This document shows, one piece after another, positions 51,935 through 64,000 of a stretch of DNA of 64,000 nt. A program made the position numbers and the translations under genes. How positions within the stretch are numbered: the first letter of the stretch is position 1; each line of letters begins with the position of its first letter. The notes below the pieces were generated by a model, which saw only the letters and a list, made by a program, of their open reading frames with translations, did not search any database and was not told the DNA's origin. The stretch spans positions 224,001 through 288,000 of the forward strand of contig CAWGMK010000010.1 of the NCBI GenBank assembly GCA_963823655.1, read 5' to 3'. The stretch comes from an uncultured Bacillota bacterium (GTDB lineage: Bacteria; Bacillota; DTU025; MWDF01).

Positions 51935-52083
51935 AGGGAGGACCTCCTGTTTCGCAATGCTAGGTACATTATAGCCAATGGGAGCATATAGATGGGCATA
52001 AGGAAGAGCCGTTTGCTTTCTTTAGAGGTAGCTTATTGATTTTATGGTCCGGCCTGTGATAAATTTATGCGTGCACAACACTT

Positions 52084-52170
52084 GCCGAAGTGGTGGAATT
52101 GGCAGACGCGCTAAATTCAGGGTCTAGTGGGGGCAACCTCGTGCGGGTTCAAATCCCGCCTTCGGCACCA
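52084..52170 (+). tRNA. tRNA-Leu (anticodon CAG)
   Basis: GCCGAAG/CTTCGGC acceptor stem, GGAATTGGCAGAC D-loop, TT-CAG-GG anticodon loop, long variable arm, GGTTCAAATCC, encoded CCA. Confidence 0.95.
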
Positions 52171-52630
52171 ATAGGGTTTTAAACTGCCAGTAAGCTGGCG
52201 GTTTTGTTTTATCATTTCCCGAAATGTCAAACAAATGTCAAGCAGAGCACTAAACCCACTCGTGAATGTGGAGGGTATTCGTTGGTATGCTTTGTCCTTC
52301 ATGCAATGACCTGCCCCCAGTTTTTGGTACAACCCAGGCTTTAGTTTTCAAGAACCTTCTGGAAGAGGTATGGGTCGCCGACCAAAATCTTTTAGAAGTA
52401 GTGCAAATCGTTGCCTAATACCTTCTCAGTGAAGTCCCATCTAACGAATTCATACTCGTCGATGGTATACCAAATAATCCCGTCTGCATGGAAGAATATT
52501 TAAGGTTTCCCTACATCGGCGCCTTTGGCAAACAGCGCGAAGGACAGATCCGATACCGGGAACCTTGATTTTTCAGCCTTAAGTTATCCCCGACGACAGT
52601 GGAAATGATGAAGATGTTGACAGGCTGCAT

Positions 52631-52661
52631 TACGGCCCCTGCTTTAAAAGCAGGGGCCGTA
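52631..52661 (-). terminator. Terminator of the MBL-fold gene
   Basis: tacggcccctgcttt-t/a-aaagcaggggccgta inverted repeat. Confidence 0.7.
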
Positions 52662-52725
52662 ATATTTATTCGGTTGTTGCGATTAGGGATTATTCGGAGG
52701 TATCACCGGTTTGCGAACGTCATAG

Positions 52726-54237
52726 TCACGGTTTACTTGAATTCGGACATTTCCGGTAGGCGAAATTGCAGAACTCAAACCAGTATTCAATATAGCTGCT
52801 GGATTCTGCCGAAATATTCCCGCCCTTTCCGTCAGGCGTCCAGGCTACTCCCGACACCGCGAGATCCAAAATTGCCTTCGCTGCGTCTCTTAATTCCCGA
52901 ACGATTTCCTTGCCGTAAACAAGTTCATTATGAGAGCCACAGATCCACTTAATGTCCAGCGGCTCGAGGATATCCCAAAGTTTTGCAGCGCTGTTGTAAT
53001 AAGCAACAAGGCTCGTTCTGCCCGGCTGATACACATAGTTCGGCCCAGGATAATAGAAGTCGCCGGTAAAGGCCATTTTGTTGGTCGCGTCAATAAGTGT
53101 GATGCTGTCTGAGGAGTGTCCCGGGGTGTTTACGACCTGCAACTTGCGCCCGCCCAAATCGAAGACGTGGGTTTCGTCTATACGCTTAATCTGAGAAGCG
53201 CTGACGCCTGGCCTAATAAGAGGATTCTCTTTGGACACGCCAATTAATTGAGCACTAAACTCAGCGGGAAGATCACGCATTAGGTCGCCAGTAGTTATCG
53301 CGCCGCCGCCGCTGCCAACGAAGAAGTTGCGAGCGATTGCGGTCATCGTGTCGCCTGCGTCGCCCGGTAAAGAGGCGTTGTCGTCGCCATTCCATACATA
53401 AATTTCCTTTACCTCGGGGAATTGCCAGCTGTCTCCCCTATGGTCGGAATGGGTGTGGGTGTTCACCATGATGAAGTTCGTACCGATTTTGATGTGGCTG
53501 TTTTCCGGCAATTTGAGAACATCTTCAACGGCTTTTCTGAGATTTCCAATACCCATACCCGTATCAATAAGCAACGCCGTCTCTGTTCCAATGACGAGGA
53601 AGGATATAACCTCCTGATCGTGACCGGGTTCAGAGAACACATACGTGTTGCCGGCTACCTTGTAAACATTGAACCAAGGCTCGGATGTTTCAATCATTTT
53701 TAACAACCCGGCGTTTATATAATCGCTCCAGCTGTCAAAGGGCCTTATTCTGTCAGGCCTGCGGTACGGTCTACTGCTCGTTGGTGCATCAACCCACCAA
53801 TTGGCTGGCCTGAATGATGTGAAAATAAAGGTCGGAGGATATTCCTGATTGAAACCCTGCTTGGTGGTAAATGTGATTTTGTTTTCCCCGTCAGTGTAAG
53901 TGATATTATAGTTCTTCAGTGTGTCGTCGTCCGCGTTGAGCGGCGTCCCTTTCAAGACGGCACTGAGATTTTTTGTCTGTTCAGCGGGGGTCTTGCCCTC
54001 AAAGTTCGTGCCGAGTGTATAGTATGTAAGGCCCAACCGGATTGTATTACCCGCAAGCAGCGCCTTATCAATCGTCAGCGTCCACTTGCCCGATGCGGCC
54101 TTGATGAACGATACAGTTCCTGCTGTCTCACTCAGAAGAACATCGCTGAAACTTGACGCGAAGACTCCCGTCGATAACAAACTAGCCAACATAAAAACTA
54201 AAAGTATCGCCAAGATAATGCGCTTTGAACTTCTCAT
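52726..54237 (-). CDS. Secreted MBL-fold metallo-hydrolase with extra N-terminal domain
   Basis: Signal peptide; LIDTGMG, THTHSDH, TPGHSSDS, FTGD, SHNE. Confidence 0.88.
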   Translation of the reverse strand: MRSSKRIILAILLVFMLASLLSTGVFASSFSDVLLSETAGTVSFIKAASGKWTLTIDKALLAGNTIRLGLTYYTLGTNFEGKTPAEQTKNLSAVLKGTPLNADDDTLKNYNITYTDGENKITFTTKQGFNQEYPPTFIFTSFRPANWWVDAPTSSRPYRRPDRIRPFDSWSDYINAGLLKMIETSEPWFNVYKVAGNTYVFSEPGHDQEVISFLVIGTETALLIDTGMGIGNLRKAVEDVLKLPENSHIKIGTNFIMVNTHTHSDHRGDSWQFPEVKEIYVWNGDDNASLPGDAGDTMTAIARNFFVGSGGGAITTGDLMRDLPAEFSAQLIGVSKENPLIRPGVSASQIKRIDETHVFDLGGRKLQVVNTPGHSSDSITLIDATNKMAFTGDFYYPGPNYVYQPGRTSLVAYYNSAAKLWDILEPLDIKWICGSHNELVYGKEIVRELRDAAKAILDLAVSGVAWTPDGKGGNISAESSSYIEYWFEFCNFAYRKCPNSSKP

Positions 54238-55194
54238 TAAGTAATGCTCCTTTCATCTTAAAAGAGGCCATGGGAAACTATAACCTCGATTTTTACGAAC
54301 AAAGAAGATACAGAATTGGACGACAATTCAAGAGTCATAAATGATATGCATCGCCTCTGTCCTCTGAATAAAATCTGAATAAATATTACATTGTTTGTCC
54401 GTTATAGTCAATTCTTATTCATTTGTGCTGTCAACCTCTATATGGAAAATTCATACATTGATGACTTTTGAATGCTTGTTATATCAAACCCTCTTATAAT
54501 ATTTTTATTCAAAGAATATTCAATGCAAGCGCAAGAGCATCTCCCCACAAATCAAAACTGGTTTTTGTACCATAGGCATATTTCACCCGATAGTCAACAA
54601 GGGTATTGTGTTGTGTCAAACAGAATGTCAAGCAAATTGATATCTCGGTCAAGCGATGTACTAGTTGTACTGAATGGAATGTAATTTGGCTTGTAAGCTG
54701 GACATATTATCATGGCTATGGAAAGCTTGAATGTATCAGATTGAGACCTTTTGAATCCCGCCTTCGGCACCGATAGGGCTTTAAATCGTCGGTATGCTGG
54801 CGGTTTTGTTTATTTAACAGCCAAGAGAAAGGCAAAGCATGAAGAAAACGTCAGAACCCAATCCTTGATTAGCGAAAGAACTTGTTGCAGATTGGAAATT
54901 TCAATTGGATTAAACTTATCGAGGTAGGCTAGACAATTGTGAACATAAATCTCACTAAGAACTACGGATCAGCGCAAGAAGGGAATAAGCTCAACACCAT
55001 TGCATGAATAAGGCTGCTCAATAGAAAGCAGATTTAACGCACCGACAAAATCTTATTGCATGTTCCTATCTAGGGCCAATATCGATAGAAATCCGCCTCG
55101 GATCAAGAATCCGTGGCGGATTAGTTACATTCATTCGATCGCATATAAGAATAGAATTCATCAAGGCAATTTTCGATAGCCTGACGCGATCCTT

Positions 55195-55893
55195 TTAATG
55201 CGTAGCAGCTCCGTCAAAGCCACCGACTGCGCCTATGGATAGTACTGAGGAATCCAACGGAGTCAAGCCGTTATCTTCATAGGAGACTTTGACGCTCTTG
55301 TAAATTATCTGGTCGGTGGTAAGATCGCCTGAATTGAGTGTCAGGTAAAAGTCATTCGACTCATAAGATATATTATCCCACTCACCGATGAGCGTATCGT
55401 TCAATGTCACTAAGAAGTGGTCGCTGACCTTCTTTAGTACATAAGTGTTTATAGCTTCGTTGAGCATGCCCGGAATTTCGGTACTTGAAGTCTCGATCAT
55501 CAGTAGATCAGTCGATGGGCCATCGGTCCAAAGCTGGTAATAGGGAAGCTCCGCTCCTCCGCGGCGGTAGAAGAACGAAATTATGCTTCCACCGCCGGGG
55601 TAGCCAGTCGTGCTCCCAAGCCATATAGCCCCATATACCCTTTGCGTTATGTCTGTGGCGACTTTGAACTTAACGGTTATCGTAAAATCGCCGTTTAGCA
55701 CGAACGGCGCAGTCACAAAGTTGTTTGCCTCAATTACGAGTCCTTCGGGCGCAAGCTCATAGGTGGAAGACAAGACCCAGTCGTCCAGGTCAGGCACGGT
55801 TACGAAATCGACGGACCATGATTTGACGCACCCTCCGGCGACAAGCAGCATGGCGAATGCAATAGTCGCCAGGAAGACTCTTGACCTCTTCAT
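55195..55893 (-). CDS. Hypothetical lipoprotein (beta-rich)
   Basis: MKRSR-hydrophobic-VAGGC lipobox-like signal; hairpin at 55090-55122 downstream. Confidence 0.7.
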   Translation of the reverse strand: MKRSRVFLATIAFAMLLVAGGCVKSWSVDFVTVPDLDDWVLSSTYELAPEGLVIEANNFVTAPFVLNGDFTITVKFKVATDITQRVYGAIWLGSTTGYPGGGSIISFFYRRGGAELPYYQLWTDGPSTDLLMIETSSTEIPGMLNEAINTYVLKKVSDHFLVTLNDTLIGEWDNISYESNDFYLTLNSGDLTTDQIIYKSVKVSYEDNGLTPLDSSVLSIGAVGGFDGAATH

Positions 55894-56304
55894 TGCATCA
55901 TCCCCTTTCTTGAACTGGTGTGTATATTATAGAAATGCTCGCTATTTCCTGCTTTTTATTAATGAAAACAGCACGGAGAGCCTGGGGCCTTATTGATATC
56001 TATTCTCATAGATATGCCAGGCGTGTGGGCTGTACATTCGTTTATGTGACCGCCATGCATTTATATTTGAACGATTACTATGAAATCCCAGAATTGAAGC
56101 CGGCGTTTCGGATTGAAATCCTCAACAGGGCGAGCAGACGAAAGAAGGCTTAACACTAATCGCTAATAACATCTGAAAGATCAGAGGCCTGTTATTCTGT
56201 TCTTCCGTTACCCCTAAAGTGCTAGTATCCTGCCTCAAGAGCGGCAAAATTGTAGGTATAGGAATCTTATCAAGTCAGTCCTTCAACTCGATGACAGGGC
56301 GTTT

Positions 56305-56742
56305 TTATTGATGGCCATATCTTTCCAGGAGATAATCCAGAGCTTCGTTGTATCCCTCAAAGCCTTTACCCATTATAGTTTTATCAGTGTAGAGCGCGAC
56401 ATAGGAAAAACTTCTAAAGTCTTCTCTTAGAACGAGATTTGAAAGATGCACTTCAACGGCGGGGAGATTTGCTGCTTTGAGTGCATCGAGTATCGCGATA
56501 CTTGTATGGGTGTAAGCGGCGGCATTTATAATGATAGCGTCGAAAGCCCCTTTGGACTTCTGAATCGCCGTAATTAACCTGCCCTCGTAATTGGATTGCA
56601 GGATTTGCACATTAATTCCCTTCTGCTTGGCCTTCTCCTTAATATACGCAACAAGCTCTGGGTAGCTCTTATCTCCATAGATCTGCTTTTCTCTTATGCC
56701 TATCATATTCAGATTGGGGCCATTTATTATATGTATTTTCAT
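56305..56742 (-). CDS. aroQ: Type II 3-dehydroquinate dehydratase
   Basis: INGPNLNMIGIRE..YG, QSNYEG, NAAAYTHTS, EVHLSN. Confidence 0.95.
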   Translation of the reverse strand: MKIHIINGPNLNMIGIREKQIYGDKSYPELVAYIKEKAKQKGINVQILQSNYEGRLITAIQKSKGAFDAIIINAAAYTHTSIAILDALKAANLPAVEVHLSNLVLREDFRSFSYVALYTDKTIMGKGFEGYNEALDYLLERYGHQ

Positions 56743-58046
56743 AGTGTTTCCTTCCATATTTCTGCTATTTTGATCTGCTTGATTCTATCTAGAATCGATA
56801 TAGCTGCGTCTTCTATCTCGCCACAATTATTGATTTCGAAATCACAAAAACCTTCGTACATGCAATGTCTGCGCTCCCAGAGCGATCCAACATCCTGCAC
56901 TTGATATAGAGGTCTTCCAGCGACTTCGAGCATGTGCAAATCACGTTTAATATGGACTCCAATCGCATTGGCGCCTAACAGGTAACGGTTCTCTTCATCG
57001 AGCAAAGCGCCACCACCCGTTGCGATTATCGCTCCATTTTCAACAGCAACTTCGCGCACTACTGCTCTTTCGAAACCTCTGAAGGTTGACTCGCCGTAAA
57101 GTTCGAATATCTGGGGTATGCTCATGCCGGTTCTTCTCTCGATGATTTCATCAGTGTCAAAAAACGGTTTCCCATAGATCTCAGAGAGCCTTTTGCCAAT
57201 TGACGTTTTGCCTGCGCCAGCCATGCCAACAAGTACAATGTTGCCTTGCTTGCGTAAACAGGCAGAGTAAATCTGTGAGAAGAGTTCTTTTTCGGTCTTA
57301 GAGCCGGTAAATAGCTCATAGGCAAGTCGAGCCTGTTCGGCCAGCATTGCTAGCCCTCCGGAGAATTTTAGCCCAAGTGATCTGGCATCCTGCACTAATC
57401 TAGTATTAATAGGGTTGTAGATTGCATCGAAAACCGCGTGGACGTTGTTAAAGTCCTTTAGCTCCACAGGCTTTTCCCCCGCATTTGGGAACATGCCTAC
57501 AGGCGTGGTGTTGATGATTATATCGGGATCAAAGCCCTTGCAGTTAGAGTAATTCAGTGAACCACTCCTTGATACAATCGCCACCTCAGCCGCGTTGTTC
57601 GAAACAGCAAGGTGCTGCGCTGTTCTGGCTGTTCCGCCGCTTCCCAGAATCATGATTCTATTTCCCTGCATCTTAATCTCTGCTCTATGAAGTGCCTCAG
57701 CCATGCCGCAAAAGTCGGTATTGTAACCCAGTAACCTCCCTTCAACATTCAGCACAATGTTGACTGCGCCGATGTCGATTGCTGTCTTATCAATGTAATC
57801 GAGGTAGTTCATGACCGTCGCTTTATAGGGGATTGTGACATTAAGCCCTGCGAAATCCCTTCTGGCAAGGAATTCGGCAACGGCATTTTCATCTGCGAGT
57901 TCTTTCAGCGAATAATCGAGCCCAAGCCTGCCATATATGTCCGCGGACAGGCTGTGGGCAAGGGTTTGCCCAAGTAGATAGTACTTTTTTACTCCTGGTT
58001 TAGCCGCTGTTGAGTGACAGCGGATCTCTTTAGAACCATCCATCAT
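56739..58046 (-). CDS. aroE: Shikimate dehydrogenase-shikimate kinase fusion
   Basis: HSLS, NVTIPYK, GYNTD, GSGGTA, IYNP, then GMAGAGKT, FDTD, ATGGG. Confidence 0.92.
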   Translation of the reverse strand: MMDGSKEIRCHSTAAKPGVKKYYLLGQTLAHSLSADIYGRLGLDYSLKELADENAVAEFLARRDFAGLNVTIPYKATVMNYLDYIDKTAIDIGAVNIVLNVEGRLLGYNTDFCGMAEALHRAEIKMQGNRIMILGSGGTARTAQHLAVSNNAAEVAIVSRSGSLNYSNCKGFDPDIIINTTPVGMFPNAGEKPVELKDFNNVHAVFDAIYNPINTRLVQDARSLGLKFSGGLAMLAEQARLAYELFTGSKTEKELFSQIYSACLRKQGNIVLVGMAGAGKTSIGKRLSEIYGKPFFDTDEIIERRTGMSIPQIFELYGESTFRGFERAVVREVAVENGAIIATGGGALLDEENRYLLGANAIGVHIKRDLHMLEVAGRPLYQVQDVGSLWERRHCMYEGFCDFEINNCGEIEDAAISILDRIKQIKIAEIWKETL

Positions 58047-58339
58047 TTGATCTCTTCACGAGTTGAAGACCTCTCCTCAATGAGACTCCTTTGGTAAGCC
58101 TTACTCGTCTCGAATAGCGTTGAGAAAAGCTGCTTTGCGAACAATCTCAGTTCATCAGGCATGCTTTCCATTACGCGGTTGAGCACCTGTCTTTCGCGGT
58201 CTGTATTGAGTACAGGAGCGCCTACGCTGCGCTTTAGGAGCGCAATGTTTTTACTTACTTCCATACGGCTTCTGAAAAGAACCGCTATCTCATCATCGAT
58301 TTTGTCAATAATAGCCCTTTGTTTATCAAGTTGTTCCAT
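58043..58339 (-). CDS. Chorismate mutase (AroQ-class) domain
   Basis: RAIIDKID..LFRSRM..K..V.N..RE..V pattern. Confidence 0.88.
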   Translation of the reverse strand: MEQLDKQRAIIDKIDDEIAVLFRSRMEVSKNIALLKRSVGAPVLNTDRERQVLNRVMESMPDELRLFAKQLFSTLFETSKAYQRSLIEERSSTREEIK

Positions 58340-58431
58340 AACATTACCGCCCCTTCAGCAAATTTCGTGTTCATCCGCTTTTCCCGTTTACTTCGCTCTC
58401 GCGGAAAATCCCAGTTTGTTTGCTGAAATAC

Positions 58432-59529
58432 TTATAAAGAAGATTTGCACGCAACAGCATTTTCACCCAGCAGTACATCAAGGAGCGAGAGAGCTACTGC
58501 TGCTTCTATGCAGGGCACCGCACGCGGGACAATACAAGTATCATGGCGGCCTTTGATTTCGATGGTGGTATTCTCGCCCAGTTCAAGATCAACTGTGTGC
58601 TGAAGGATTGAAATCGACGGTGTCGGTTTGATAGCTACCTTAATAGTCAATGGCATGCCATTGGAAACGCCACCGTTGATTCCGCCATTATTGTTTGTCT
58701 TCGTTACAACCTTATCGTCCCTGTACTCGAACGCATCATTAGCCTGGCTACCACGCATTTGAGAAAACCCGAAACCAGCTCCGAATGCAATGGCTTTGAC
58801 TGCCGGTACCGCGAAAACTGCATAGGATATCAACCCCTCCAAGCCATCAAACATCGCGTCGCCAAGGCCTGCGGGCATTCCAAACACAACACACTCTATC
58901 TCACCGCCTATACTGTCATTAGCCTCTTTAGCATCCATTATCTCTTTTAGCATGCCGTTGTCCGAGGCTTCGTCTGCTACAGCAAGGCTTCGTGCTTGTG
59001 CTTCAAGGACAATGTCGGGAGTAATCTCTGCATCTTCATAGCTTAGTAGCCCTTTCGCTTTGCCGATGCGCGAGATGTAGGCTGCGACCGTAATACCTTT
59101 AGTTCGCAATATTTCCTTTGCAATGCCACCTGCGATGCAAAGTGGGGCGGTCATCCTGCCGGAGAACCTACCTCCGCCGCTTGTTGTCTGGCCTTTTAAA
59201 TAGGCTGCGTAATCTGCATGTGAAGGCCTGGGTTTGTTCGTTAGCCCGCTATAATCGCCAGTTCGCACGCTTTGGTTCTTTATGGTGGCACGTATAGGGC
59301 CCCCATCTGTTACGTCATTGGCTATCCCTGATTCAAAGTGAATAATGTCTGGCTCAATGCGGGGAGTCGACCAGGGATTATCCCCGCTTTTACGCCTATC
59401 CACGAATGACTGTACATTTTTCAGCGACACGGCCTCACCTTTGGGAATGCCACTTAACAGCATTCCAATTTCGCTGGAATGCGATTTTCCGAAAATCTCG
59501 AGTTGGATATTCTTAAAGTTTGCATGCAC
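58432..59529 (-). CDS. aroC: Chorismate synthase
   Basis: FGKSHS, PRPSHADY, GGGRFSGR, NNNGGINGG, KPTPSI, GRHDTCI. Confidence 0.95.
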   Translation of the reverse strand: MHANFKNIQLEIFGKSHSSEIGMLLSGIPKGEAVSLKNVQSFVDRRKSGDNPWSTPRIEPDIIHFESGIANDVTDGGPIRATIKNQSVRTGDYSGLTNKPRPSHADYAAYLKGQTTSGGGRFSGRMTAPLCIAGGIAKEILRTKGITVAAYISRIGKAKGLLSYEDAEITPDIVLEAQARSLAVADEASDNGMLKEIMDAKEANDSIGGEIECVVFGMPAGLGDAMFDGLEGLISYAVFAVPAVKAIAFGAGFGFSQMRGSQANDAFEYRDDKVVTKTNNNGGINGGVSNGMPLTIKVAIKPTPSISILQHTVDLELGENTTIEIKGRHDTCIVPRAVPCIEAAVALSLLDVLLGENAVACKSSL

Positions 59530-60781
59530 TAGTTATACCCCCAAGCTTTGCCATGTCTGCAAAGAAAGCCGGATAGGACTTCTTTACGCATTGGGCGTTA
59601 ATAATTCCCGTGTTTCCGACCCTGGATCCTCCTATGGCTGCGCTCATTGCCAGGCGGTGATCGTTTTGCGAATCGATGACATTGCCTCCGCGCATAGTCA
59701 CCTCCGAAAATCCTAAGGGTATCATCTGCGTATTCAGATCTTACGGAAAACCCTGCCAGCATCTTCATTATGCCCTCAAGCCTGTTGGACTCCTTGAAGC
59801 TGAGCCTATCTACGCCTCGCATGATGGATACGCCTTTCGCCGTTGCCATGGCTATCGAAAGTATAGGAGCGAGGTCCGGGAAGTTTTCGATGTTCAAGTC
59901 AATAGGCTCAAGCGCGCTCTCGTTGAAGGTGATGGAGCCATTTGAAAATGTGATTTCAGCTTTCATATCCCGCAAGATGTCAATAATCGCCCTATCGCTC
60001 TGACGCGAGTCCAAGTTGAGCCCCTTTAGAGTTACACAGCCATTAATCGCCCCTGCTACAGCGAAATTTGCAGCCCCGCTGAAATCTCCCTCCACAAGAA
60101 GGCTCCCGGGCGTTTTGAATTCCTGATTTCCTTCTAAGTGATAGAATATTGCCTTCCCGCACGACATTAACGGAAAATAGGCTGAGCATAGACAGCGTAA
60201 GATCTATATAGCCCTCCGACACAATGCCATTCTGGATGGAGATTGTGCTATCACCGTCAAGCAGAGGAAGCGCTAGATAGCAATCCCGTAACATACTGAG
60301 AACTGATAGAACCGTCCACTTCGTATGCCCCGCTGCGAAGCTTTCCGCTCATACAAAGTGGGAGCCTGTCACTGTCTGCCTTGACACCATGGGCCCTCAA
60401 GGCTTCAAGAAGTCCTGAAATTGGCCGCGAAGAAAGCTGGCCTTCACCAATGAACTCAACGTCCAACCCCAGTGCTGCAACTACCGGGATCAGGAAACGA
60501 AGGGTAGAGCCGCTCTCCTTAGCATTAAGCCTAAGATTGTTCTTGCGCGTAATTATCGGATTGACGATAATGCCCTCTTCACATGGTATAAACAAAGCAC
60601 CCATCTCACTAAGCGCTGACATTGTGGCTTCAACATCGCTGCCTACAATGTTCCCATGAAGGTGGGTTGGCCCTTTTGACAATGCGGATGCAATTAATGC
60701 TCGGTGAGCGACAGATTTTGAAATCGGTGCGAACAATTCGCCCGAAAGCTTCGACCTCTCAACGGATTCAATCATCAGCAT
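59513..60781 (-). CDS. aroA: EPSP synthase (three apparent frameshifts)
   Basis: SKSVAHRAL, ESGSTLRF, ISSQYVTGLL, EGDFS, PDL, KESNRL, NDHRLAM, KSYPAF. Confidence 0.92.
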
Positions 60782-60954
60782 ATTCTGCGAGCTCCCCCCA
60801 TGTCGTTTCTTGATGGTGCATTAGGCTAATCCATTGATGACAATAAAATCCCCTTTGCCCTCAGTCTTTAATGAAACTGGATGCACTTGTATCCCTGCAG
60901 ATAGGATCCCAACCGAAAACTTCGTTGAGCGGGCTTTAGGCATAGACAGTAATT

Positions 60955-61813
60955 TTAACAACCTTTCCCATCCTTCGCAGTTCTATCAGCCACTTCTTTC
61001 ATCCTCACGCCTTCTGTCAGCAATTGATTCAGCAGGACCGCATCGTTGTTCACGAGCGCCAGTTTAATATCAGCAATGTTCTTTTCGAGAGCGTCAATCT
61101 GAAGGAGCACATTATCGCGATTCTCCAAGAGCAGCTCCGTCCATGTCCTAGGATTGAGCCTCGCCACCCTGGTCATATCCTGAAAACTCCCTGCCGAGAA
61201 TCCCAAATGATCCTCAGAAAGTGGATTTCTGATATAACTCATGGAAACGACGTGAACAATTTGGGAAGTGTATGCTATCATCTCGTCATGCTTCTCAGCC
61301 GTTGCGATCCGGATGCCCTTACAACCAATCTCGCGCAGCAGTGATATTATCCTGTCCAATGCTGGATGCGAAGTTTTGACAGGTGTGACGATGGCGTAGG
61401 TGCCTTCGAATAATGATGCTGCCGAATTCGATATCCCGCATGATTTCCCTTCCAGCCATGGGGTGCACGCCAGCAAACTCAAGGTTTGGGTATCTCTCAC
61501 GCAGTGACTCCATACATCTGATTACCCTTCGTTTAGTCCCGCAGCTGTCGATGATTACTGCTCCATCCTTTAGCTTGGGTGCCGCCTTTTCCATTTCGGA
61601 TATGGCATCAGATGGACTAAGGGCGAAAATCGCCAAATCGACATCTTTCAGGTTCTCATCCGTTATCTCATCATCAATCGCCTTCAAAAGTCTCGCATCG
61701 ATCACGGTTTGCGGGTCTATGTCGCGCCCAAGAACCTTGTGCGGCGTCTTTTCCAGTATTGCCCTTCCAAATGACCCCCCAATAAGCCCCAAACCATATA
61801 TGGCGATTACCAT
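60955..61813 (-). CDS. tyrA: Prephenate dehydrogenase (apparent frameshift near 61440)
   Basis: GLGLIGGS, DSCGTK, HPMAG, HDEMIAYTSQ, GSFQDMTRVA. Confidence 0.92.
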
Positions 61814-61825
61814 GAATATCTCTCC

Positions 61826-62257
61826 TTATACGCAGTAGGTTGCATAATGCCGAGGAATCTCGCGATATCTTATGACTGCTAAGCTTAAGTGACTTTGCCA
61901 ATCGTTTAATGATTTGGTCCGGTCGTTGTTAGCCTCGGTCATGTGCCTGTCTGCACTAGCTCCTATTTATCTGAGACTGCGCCCTTAGAAATTCTGGTCG
62001 TAAACATCGATTGCCGAATTTAGCGAATGGAATTTGGCATGTGCATTAATATTGGGATCTTGGTTTTTATTTATCGACTCCACTATTTCGAATGAGTGTA
62101 AACGGTTCATGTCGATGCTTGCCGTGTCTCCGATGAGGCCAATAAGCGTGGAATTATCGCTCTCGCTCATATGGACACCTAGGCCTTGATCTTCTATCCA
62201 TCTTAAAAGGTCACTGATCTTGTTCCTGCCATGAGTCTTCCTAATGCTTATAACCAT
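61826..62257 (-). pseudogene. aroF: Internally deleted, decayed DAHP synthase (type I-beta)
   Basis: N-terminal regulatory domain (GLGVHMS..TLIGLIGDT..KFH) stops at 61985 and is followed directly by a degenerate C-terminus (ASADRHMTEANND..ND/AKSL, resembling AGADGLMIEVHND..DGAQSL); about 430 bp versus about 1 kb expected. Confidence 0.75.
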
Positions 62258-62569
62258 AGCTTGCTTCGCCTCTTTCTTTAAATAATGATTCCTCATTAAG
62301 AGCTTATTGCCCCTTGTTATCAACCGTTGATTGCGTTTCTCTATTTCAATAAGCGTGCGAACATACATCCCTTTTTGGAAGGGATGTGATGCAGCATCTC
62401 TGCCTTTATGGTTGGGCCTTTCATCGTGGGGGAAAAGGTCGATCTTGTGAACCACTTTGCAATTGTTTATGTCGACCCGAATAGGTCTACTGTCACTAAA
62501 TCTGAAATTCCATTAGTACATCATCCCCCTTAATGTAGGGTAGCGGGACGAGATTTCACTCGAAGGCAG

Positions 62570-62600
62570 AAATAAAAAAAGACCCGGATATCCCGGACCT
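62570..62600 (-). terminator. Attenuator terminator of the aro/tyr operon leader
   Basis: AGGTCCGGG-ata-TCCGGGTCT followed by TTTTTTATTT on the minus strand. Confidence 0.75.
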
Positions 62601-62655
62601 TCAGTTTTACGGCCTGCCCTCGCGCCCGCTTAAGATGATGTACCCTAAGCTTTGC

Positions 62656-62739
62656 CTATACCCAATGGTAAGCGCAAGAACAAGCCGCCGTATAGGCGTA
62701 ATATCGATATATCGCTATCATCGATATCAATTGCTTCAT
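62656..62739 (-). CDS. Tyr-rich leader peptide, 27 aa (not in the ORF track)
   Basis: GGAGG RBS; MKQLISMIAIYRYYAYTAACSCAYHWV. Confidence 0.75.
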   Translation of the reverse strand: MKQLISMIAIYRYYAYTAACSCAYHWV

Positions 62740-62775
62740 GTCTGCGCCTCCGTAGTAAGTTTGTACATTACGAGA

Positions 62776-62804
62776 AATATATAGCCCTTAAAGTGTTTTG
62801 TCAA
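62776..62804 (-). promoter_or_regulatory. Sigma-70/A promoter of the aro/tyr leader
   Basis: TTGACA-17 bp-TATATT. Confidence 0.8.
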
Positions 62805-62840
62805 GGCATCGACTTGCTTCTTGTGATCAGTCAACGATAA

Positions 62841-62966
62841 TGTCATGGTGTAAACTCATCAGGGAAAGTGTCATCCTCAAGAACGATCTGCAATGAGAGG
62901 ATGAGATACGAAATGAGCAAGCAGGACGCCCGCAAGGTCACAATCATAGAGAAGCTTTTGGCATAG
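62841..62966 (+). mobile_element. Left-end remnant of an ISNCY/IS1202-like element
   Basis: TGTCATGGTGTAAACT end with internal AAAGTGTCAT repeat, then truncated ORF MRYEMSKQDARKVTIIEKLLA* resembling these transposases' N-termini (from memory). Confidence 0.45.
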
Positions 62967-63005
62967 AGGCACTACTCTGCCGATTTGGCACACGCTAAAC
63001 CTCAA

Positions 63006-64000
63006 CTATATTGTTGGGACAATCATTGTGATGTTGCGTTCGCCTATCAAGTAGATACGCTCCTGCGATTTTCTTAACGCTATCGGCCCTTTCAACCAGC
63101 TTGCCTGGTAATTCTCTATAGTATTTAGCTCTTCGTCAAGTATTACCAAGCCACCATCTACCGGTATCAAATATGTTGGCCCATCTGCTATAGGGCGTCC
63201 AACAATTCTGAATGATGAAATAATCCTTTTTAGGATTTGGCCCTTATCTATGTCAATGAGAGAAAGCGTAATCCCGTCCTTTGCCACTGCCAGGGCTTTG
63301 TCGGCGTATCCCACAACAAGGTATTCAGGAGGCTCCATAATGAGCCGCCATTCATAGAAAGGCATATCCTGATTGCTCCATTTGATTATCCCTATGTATT
63401 TGTCTAATACTAGGATGCTTTTGGGTCCAAGCACTTCTACATCTGTGAAACCGATACCTATCTTTTCTAGCTGCCTGGTTGTGGATCCGTCATTCATATC
63501 GACAATGTTGAGGTATTCTATTCCCTCCGTTAGGCCGGTATCAGCCGAGTTGTAGGAAACCTTCCCTATGACTATGCAACTGCCGTTAACCAGGTAATCG
63601 AGGGACCATACAGGCCCCGCATATTCTACAAATCAGCAGTTGGGCGGTTTGAAGTACTCCCAGGCAAGGCTTCCGTCCAGGTTAAGTGCAAACAGGCCGT
63701 GGTCCCATCCTACGAGCAGGATGCCATCCATTACCGTCAACGCATGAACAATGTCATAGGCATCGATCTGCCATTTCAACTTCCCATCTTTTGAAAGCCC
63801 GGCAACGGTATTCCCGAAAGCCATGTAAATATCTCCGAACAAATCTGTTGCCAGAAGGTATATGGGTTCGCTGGATTTCCAAGACCACCTGACATGCCCA
63901 TACTTATCGAAAACCACAGCTTGATTTCCTGCCGAAATGACAATCCCTCCGTCTGGCATTAATTCAGACGAGGTTATGCCTTCGACTTCTACCGACCATA
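63006..64000 (-). CDS. PQQ/BamB-like beta-propeller protein with one in-frame TGA at 63633-63635 (5' end outside window)
   Basis: Repeats DKYGHVRW, SKDGKLKW, NLDGSLAW; ORFs 63633..63959 and 63006..63497 share a frame and the 45 intervening codons contain no stop. Confidence 0.7.

Follow-up and report, generated by a model that had tools for sequence, protein, structure and literature searches.

At the end of a 64,000-nt stretch of DNA from an uncultured Bacillota bacterium (assembly GCA_963823655.1, contig CAWGMK010000010.1, G000:C10:224001-288000, where G000 is the focal genome; the whole stretch is hereafter the window) lies a minus-strand gene for a predicted beta-propeller, the frame of which holds one TGA that very probably encodes selenocysteine (Sec). 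Translation of 63998-63006 (-) gives a single frame of 331 positions whose one internal stop is the TGA at 63635-63633, in the context ...YFKPPNC-TGA-FVEYAGPVW.... The two propeller open reading frames (ORFs) recognised in an initial annotation are thus one frame broken only by TGA, as that annotation had proposed. Moreover, no ATG, GTG or TTG follows until the 46th codon downstream, an ATG at 63497, in agreement with the 45 start-free codons it had counted. The window truncates the gene. Its ATG lies 82 nt past the window end (G000:C10:288082) and is preceded by GGAGG, a Shine-Dalgarno sequence, 8 nt upstream. The full gene has 358 codons, with the TGA as codon 150, and the features at the locus are as follows.

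63006..64000 (-): coding sequence of the putative propeller selenoprotein, codons 28-358 and the stop TAG (63006-63008); a single frame with one TGA, to which full-length homologues align end to end
G000:C10:288001-288082 (-), outside the window: start and codons 1-27 of the same gene, from the contig sequence
63633..63635 (-): putative Sec-UGA, codon 150; TGA in the same column in 27/27 family members; the contigs from runs X1 and X5 also read TGA here
63636..63638 (-): TGC codon of Cys149, the putative partner of Sec; invariant Cys column in an alignment of 19 sequences
63602..63618 (-): upper stem-loop resembling a selenocysteine insertion sequence (SECIS), with a 6-bp stem and a 5-nt loop N-G-U-N-N; nt 18-34 from the U of UGA, by comparison of 27 homologues
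63603..63617 (-): codons for G-P-V-W-S, residues 156-160, overlapping the hairpin; G, P and V invariant in the alignment

The initial annotation had asked whether homologues keep the TGA in a continuous frame, whether the codon might be a sequencing error and whether the genome has the machinery for Sec. A six-frame search for the family covered 61 genomes: G000, 6 congeners, 14 others of the order and 40 more of the phylum. Matches were found in eight of them, namely G000, 6/6 congeners (G001-G006) and 1/14 others of the order (G007, from a sister family), and in 0/40 of the further genomes of the phylum. The extraction pattern, which allowed Cys as well as TGA at the critical column, yielded 27 family genes, 7 of them from G000, 19 from G001-G006 (4, 3, 3, 4, 2 and 3, respectively) and 1 from G007. 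All 27 carry TGA at this column in a continuous frame with no separate start, and no two-gene arrangement with its own starts was seen, which settles the first question in favour of the initial annotation. Another 11 loci, taken from collections of genomes and metagenomes, all have TGA as well (11/11), though this set and the first 27 are not independent. A search for relatives with a 7-sequence alignment recovered only TGA-bearing sequences, nearly identical to known members, from records labelled as metagenome-assembled genomes of Firmicutes, Bacillota or Clostridia. Across 401 sampled genomes of the phylum, 17/17 rows covering the family carry TGA (from G000, G001, G002, G004 and G007), and 12 further rows from 9 genomes extend only to profile positions up to ~150 and represent ordinary PQQ-type repeats without stops. 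Among 21 genomes of the class, the C-terminal half was matched only in the genus. Judged by these searches, the family is apparently lineage-restricted, having been seen in a single genus and in one genome of a sister family, all of a lineage labelled Bacillota, with 2-7 paralogues per genome within the genus.

The family is diverged, the 19 full-length members that were aligned sharing 20-37% identity with the focal protein. Their invariant columns comprise one Cys, the Sec, G-P-V and a few structural G, W and P, so that Cys and Sec are the sole chemically reactive invariant residues of the family. The invariant G-P-V starts six residues past Sec (five between) and this register is constant, with the Cys placed either one or three residues before Sec. 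The motif reads E-D-C-U-F in group A (P-N-C-U-F in the focal gene) and C-D-T-U, C-A-T-U or C-D-(F/Y)-U elsewhere. In a maximum-likelihood tree of 21 members, groups A-D form separate, mostly well-supported clades, each with several species on long branches; the duplications are therefore older than the species splits and the TGA has been retained throughout. The focal copy stands next to group A on a long branch of 1.36. One paralogue in the focal genome, G000:C4:90462-91409 (-), has two in-frame TGAs, the second of which might represent another Sec, a genuine stop behind a frameshift or simply an error.

We next consider whether the locus might be a pseudogene, a sequencing error or two separate genes, an explanation that we find hardly credible. 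In its favour, the assembly contains many frameshifts and the public annotation of the focal gene is a 149-residue ORF stopping at the TGA. However, the same stop occupies the same column in 27/27 diverged homologues, 45 codons without a start follow it, and the TGA would fall inside blade 4 of a modelled closed propeller that requires both halves. Moreover, contigs assembled from other public runs span the TGA and retain it in spite of 2-18 other differences: one contig in run X1 (18 other differences) and three in run X5 (2, 7 and 3). No change at 63633-63635 occurs among the 40 of 70 differences listed, and the question of sequencing error is thereby answered in the negative. Two nearby differences in these contigs are synonymous on the coding strand (63630, TTT to TTC; 63609, GTA to GTG, at loop position 4). 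A database ORF of 149 residues, with 7 differences from the focal N-terminus, also stops at the same Cys, and its cluster has both ENA and Logan entries. There were no RNA runs among the public runs listed as containing the focal stretch, and labels among these runs point to wastewater and sludge. Genome-wide reassignment of TGA (codes 4 or 25) was ruled out, given that TGA is the commonest stop of long frames in the genome (431/1141) and that the sole tRNA with a UCA anticodon is tRNA-Sec.

The frameshifts themselves are likelier to be indel errors of the assembly than real decay. The initial annotation had claimed that most other breaks in the window are indels; this was checked in part only, and to that extent it holds: EPSP synthase is broken into two ORFs, and so is prephenate dehydrogenase (window 59598-61813). 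Propeller paralogues are frameshifted in 5/7 cases in G000, and their congener counterparts are whole. Since housekeeping genes, selB and five of the seven paralogues are all split, we think that the indels are assembly errors. The frameshifted paralogues, from the six-frame search of G000, are listed below.

C12:61991-62953: frameshifted propeller paralogue
C7:232454-233436: frameshifted propeller paralogue
C4:90462-91409: frameshifted propeller paralogue
C6:299977-300761: frameshifted propeller paralogue
C10:181538-182540: frameshifted propeller paralogue

The hairpin behind the TGA, GGGGCC-UGUAU-GGUCCC at 63618-63602 (-), is 17 nt long and begins 15 nt after the UGA. Its loop begins 20 nt after the UGA and has G and U at positions 2 and 3, exactly where the initial annotation had placed them. 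Aligned over a region that reaches from 15 nt ahead of the UGA to 63 nt behind it, the 27 family genes show no gaps, and in this alignment the stem (nt 18-23 with 29-34) is paired in 98.1% of 162 cells; sliding one arm by 1-3 nt lowers the figure to 22-72%. The closing pair of the stem shows compensatory changes, being GC in 14 sequences, AU in 4, UA in 4, GU in 2 and unpaired in 3, and RNAalifold independently predicts the same stem and nothing else. The loop follows the consensus N-G-U-N-N, with G in 27/27 sequences and U in 26/27, and the stem energy is -7.5 kcal/mol or lower in 24/27 (-10.3 kcal/mol in the focal copy). According to the available text of a 2026 review (PMC13188914), a bacterial SECIS (bSECIS) has a loop of 3-9 nt, an upper stem of 4-16 bp, a G in the first two loop positions, a distance of 16-37 nt from the UGA and a minimum free energy of -7.5 kcal/mol or lower. 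With a loop of 5 nt, a stem of 6 bp, a spacing of 20 nt, an invariant G and the energy reached in 24/27, the hairpin fits this consensus across the 27 homologues, as the initial annotation had maintained for the focal copy. A strict pattern, in which this hairpin had to follow a TGA flanked by open frames, has three matches in the genome, all of which are family members.

Because the hairpin and the invariant G-P-V-(R/W)-S codons overlap, constraint on the RNA and constraint on the peptide were separated at synonymous sites. Counted over related sequences, which hence are not independent trials, the stem Gly codon is GGG in 19 and GGA in 8 of the 27 genes and in none GGC or GGT, these two making up 64% of Gly codons in the long frames of the genome. 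Similarly, the stem Arg codon is NGG in 21/21 genes (48% of Arg codons in the long frames) and the stem Ser codon is TCC in 22/22 (24% of Ser codons). Third positions in the loop vary, with T 11, G 14 and C 2 for Pro and A 11, C 11, T 3 and G 2 for Val. Frozen synonymous sites in the stem set against free ones in the loop are the signature to be expected of a structured RNA. As the SECIS stem and the invariant peptide would be written on the same nucleotides, this contrast provides a built-in control.

As to the third question, the genome contains the complete machinery for Sec insertion, i.e. tRNA-Sec (selC), selA, selB and selD.

G000 C6:98054-98148: tRNA-Sec, the only tRNA with anticodon UCA
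G000, selD: 372 bits; has its own Sec-UGA (1 TGA)
G000, selA: 499.1 bits
G000:C6:102231-104116, selB: beside other sel genes; 279.8 bits; the frame shifts once

In 6/6 congeners selB is unbroken, with open frames of 639-670 residues. Behind its own Sec-UGA, the selD gene has a similar G+C-rich hairpin, at a slightly shorter distance. Few queries were used to look for other Sec genes in the genome, and these found only selD and a deiodinase-like protein. No match to GrdA or GrdB was obtained in the genome, a search in which control genomes were likewise silent, and the Fdh-alpha-like gene has no internal stop. Under the canonical bacterial pathway the hairpin would act as the SECIS element: SelB carrying Sec-tRNA(Sec) would bind its G-U-containing apical loop and deliver Sec at the ribosome paused on the UGA. 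Built from the G-P-V-(R/W)-S codons, the element would place RNA and peptide under joint constraint.

Homologues were further sought with a profile search against 1.84 billion representatives, which gave 30,801 matches, the best 150 of which are described here. Most (133) are multi-repeat proteins of 645-7,935 residues in which the match is confined to about positions 1-156. These giant PQQ-repeat proteins were considered as Cys homologues and rejected, since they align over residues ~25-146 only and one aligned example has no C-U motif. Five of the matches are N-terminal fragments of 149-151 residues that all end at the Cys (or C-D-T) before the Sec column, and 11 are C-terminal fragments of 177-210 residues; database ORFs of relatives restart just after the Sec column. 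Two word-index protein searches yielded no more than a pair of C-terminal fragments and a single PQQ protein with 28% identity. Public databases therefore hold the family as fragments, so that the genomes of this lineage are mis-annotated.

The focal protein has a sub-threshold match to the Pfam family PQQ_2 (PF13360; 25.9 bits against a gathering cut-off of 27.6, E = 9.1e-6), and no family of NCBIfam release 20 matches it at E up to 1. An AlphaFold2 model built from the 19-sequence alignment is all-beta (mean predicted local distance difference test 87.1, predicted template modelling (TM) score 0.82), with at least 32 strands arranged in eight four-stranded blades of a single propeller. Residues 144-152, which include C149-U150, form a loop between strands 1 and 2 of blade 4, and the three strands after this loop are unusually long. 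Foldseek matched the model to designed eight-blade propellers and many BamB chains (TM ~0.63-0.72, E down to 6.9e-13) as well as Bacillus YxaL (7eq5_B, TM 0.65). A query of the ESM Atlas with just the C-terminal piece led to PQQ-like and unnamed entries and nothing else (scores 0.92-0.93), with recognition just under the mark of the tool. The PQQ-like propeller of the initial annotation is borne out by this model in so far as the protein is predicted to be an eight-bladed BamB/YxaL-like beta-propeller. The N-terminus, with basic residues, a hydrophobic stretch and A-x-x-L-S-F, resembles by eye a signal peptide of about 20 residues, from which the protein is probably exported.

We infer, with high though not full confidence, that the locus is one intact gene encoding an exported, predicted eight-bladed propeller of ~358 residues in which UGA codon 150 is decoded as Sec. 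The original interpretation, a Sec-containing PQQ-like propeller, is thus supported. A number of observations weigh against it. Insertion of Sec is itself deduced from sequence, and the position of Sec in the fold was read from the secondary structure of the model rather than from coordinates. The hairpin overlaps invariant codons, Rfam holds neither a SECIS nor any other credible match for it, and the focal 50-nt fold alone has z = -1.17, with 27/200 shuffles folding equally well. A single fold is therefore within chance, and it is the comparison of 27 homologues that lends the hairpin its significance. selB is frameshifted in the focal assembly, and no redox partner gene is conserved beside the family (64 flanking ORFs at 22 loci were surveyed). 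No Cys form was found among the best 150 of 30,801 profile matches, in the two word-index searches or in the 401 genomes of the phylum. The homologue test thus gave the conserved TGA and not the customary pair of Sec and Cys homologues; almost all selenoproteins have Cys-containing homologues, as stated in the available part of the deep-Sep paper (PMC12013277). Finally, the sole full-length entry among the best 150 matches (P0007, 342 residues) has W at the Sec column. It comes from a metagenome contig of 1,839 nt, with a cluster mate (P0155), also full-length, on a contig of 1176 nt, and its W is either a natural TGG variant or a TGA rendered as Trp by the gene caller of its source. Metagenome gene callers can use a TGA=Trp model on short contigs, which would explain P0007.

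The W of P0007 and the lack of known Cys forms would also suit a scheme in which near-cognate tRNAs read the UGA as Trp, Cys or Arg and the hairpin is a general stimulator of read-through, with no selenium involved. We regard this as very improbable. The element fits the SelB-type consensus in both its spacing and its loop G-U, a full set of Sec machinery is retained in the genome, and the UGA of selD is itself followed by a hairpin at a similar spacing. Moreover, if a standard amino acid sufficed, TGG or TGC would be expected in some of 27 old paralogues and is seen in none.

Taking the gene to be a selenoprotein gene, the Cys-Sec pair would constitute a selenenylsulfide or selenol-thiol redox centre outside the cytoplasm. 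We lean towards this as the most likely role, at somewhat better than even odds. As no redox partner gene is shared between loci, it is the motif by itself that argues for it. The main competing proposal is that Cys and Sec are instead ligands for a metal or metalloid, serving in binding, sensing or transfer, which we consider possible but on the whole doubtful. Most vicinal C-U families named in the available text of the catalogue have metal-related names, these families being HgcA, the MerB-like SaoL, the metal-binding MbdU and a 2Fe-2S-binding protein (PMC13188914). A ferritin gene adjoins group-A members in two congeners (L020 and L021), and no conserved thioredoxin-like partner gene lies nearby, both of which would suit a metal ligand. 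However, most members have C-x-x-U, which the same text treats as a redox-type motif (PMC13188914). Nor is there another conserved Cys, His or Met column that could supply a ligand, the remaining invariant columns being G, W, P and V. Beyond the redox role itself, we offer as a speculation that these are obligate exported selenoenzymes of non-thioredoxin fold, without Cys relatives and with 2-7 paralogues per genome; that they are the main reason why this uncultured anaerobic lineage keeps its Sec machinery; and that they belong to a broad hidden extracytoplasmic class split by gene callers.

In the neighbourhood survey, recurrent neighbours were GNAT acetyltransferases, a SurA_N/TPR protein (group B), a lipoprotein-like ORF (group D) and an Na/H exchanger (group C). 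Group-B propeller genes are flanked by the protein with SurA_N and TPR domains and by a conserved ORF of 353-394 residues without a Pfam match. Each group-D propeller gene follows a same-strand ORF of ~215 residues with a lipoprotein-like N-terminus and no Pfam match, which may be an operon partner of the group-D propeller.

L024:412-1473 (-): conserved ORF beside a group-B gene
L025:2423-3604 (+): conserved ORF beside a group-B gene
L026:2581-3639 (+): conserved ORF beside a group-B gene
L027:408-1505 (-): conserved ORF beside a group-B gene
L033:2532-3176 (-): ORF before a group-D gene
L034:2537-3202 (-): ORF before a group-D gene
L032:2670-3311 (-): ORF before a group-D gene
L039:2191-2832 (-): ORF before a group-D gene
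L040:258-902 (+): ORF before a group-D gene

The deiodinase-like protein is a second exported selenoprotein, with the motif G-S-(Y/F)-T-U-P-P and a match to Pfam T4_deiodinase (E = 1.7e-11), and belongs to a catalogued family. In two congeners its gene lies ~0.8-1.1 kb from a group-A propeller gene.

L044:4756-5478 (+): deiodinase-like selenoprotein
L045:4864-5586 (+): deiodinase-like selenoprotein
L019:3334-4044: deiodinase-like selenoprotein
L020:1-681: deiodinase-like selenoprotein
G000 C10:146517-147281, outside the window: deiodinase-like selenoprotein

The G+C content of the focal gene is 46%, compared with 49-56% in its paralogues. G+C falls from ~53-59% to 43-48% at tRNA-Leu(CAG) (C10:276084-276170, window 52084-52170), and the low-G+C segment runs from window ~52000 to 64000 and beyond (G000:C10:276001 to ~303000). 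This segment also contains a row of shikimate-pathway genes, so that a mobile island is not obvious. The gene upstream of the focal one (L001:3009-3989 (-)), which lies just outside the window, has a product of more than 326 residues; an H-E-x-x-H-like motif occurs upstream in the same frame, and Pfam gave no match for the product at E up to 0.1.

The locus appears to be a real selenoprotein gene using the canonical bacterial route, from an uncatalogued, apparently Sec-only and lineage-restricted family of exported propellers. The 2026 review compiles 119 prokaryotic selenoprotein families or subfamilies, and its Table 1 and text, as far as available, hold no propeller, PQQ or WD40 entry (PMC13188914). 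None was found in the available parts of the deep-Sep paper (PMC12013277) or of a 2022 review either, and a literature search for a bacterial propeller selenoprotein, covering sources available in part, found no paper. Together with the lack of an NCBIfam model, this agrees, within the portion of the catalogue available (PMC13188914), with the initial annotation, which did not recognise the family among described selenoproteins. Methods based on Sec/Cys pairs miss such a family because no Cys form of it is known.

The focal family resembles BamB and YxaL in its predicted eight-bladed fold, in its weak PQQ_2 match and in an N-terminus like an export signal, and differs from them in blade 4, which has the C(xx)U loop and unusually long strands. 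The lipobox of BamB is not apparent either, in that no conserved Cys ends the N-terminal hydrophobic stretch in the 19 sequences inspected by eye. To our knowledge, neither BamB nor YxaL is a selenoprotein. With Escherichia coli fdhF and its bSECIS the focal gene shares an in-frame UGA followed by a stem-loop inside the ORF, an early loop G-U and the presence of selA, selB, selC and selD. The loop G25/U26 lies ~2 nt further from the UGA than G23/U24 of fdhF. In contrast to fdhF, the focal protein is unrelated to formate dehydrogenase and its hairpin is fused to an invariant G-P-V-(R/W)-S peptide. The third comparison is with the C-x-x-U and C-U selenoproteins named in the available text of the catalogue (SelW-like, GrdA and AhpD-like; HgcA, SaoL and MbdU), in which Sec is likewise paired with a nearby Cys in redox or metal motifs (PMC13188914). 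The focal family, which matches none of their NCBIfam models, differs in being a predicted beta-propeller; most characterised selenoproteins, according to the review, have a thioredoxin-like fold (PMC13188914). If our reading is correct, an exported beta-propeller with a C-U/C-x-x-U centre would add to the catalogue both a different scaffold and a different cellular compartment.

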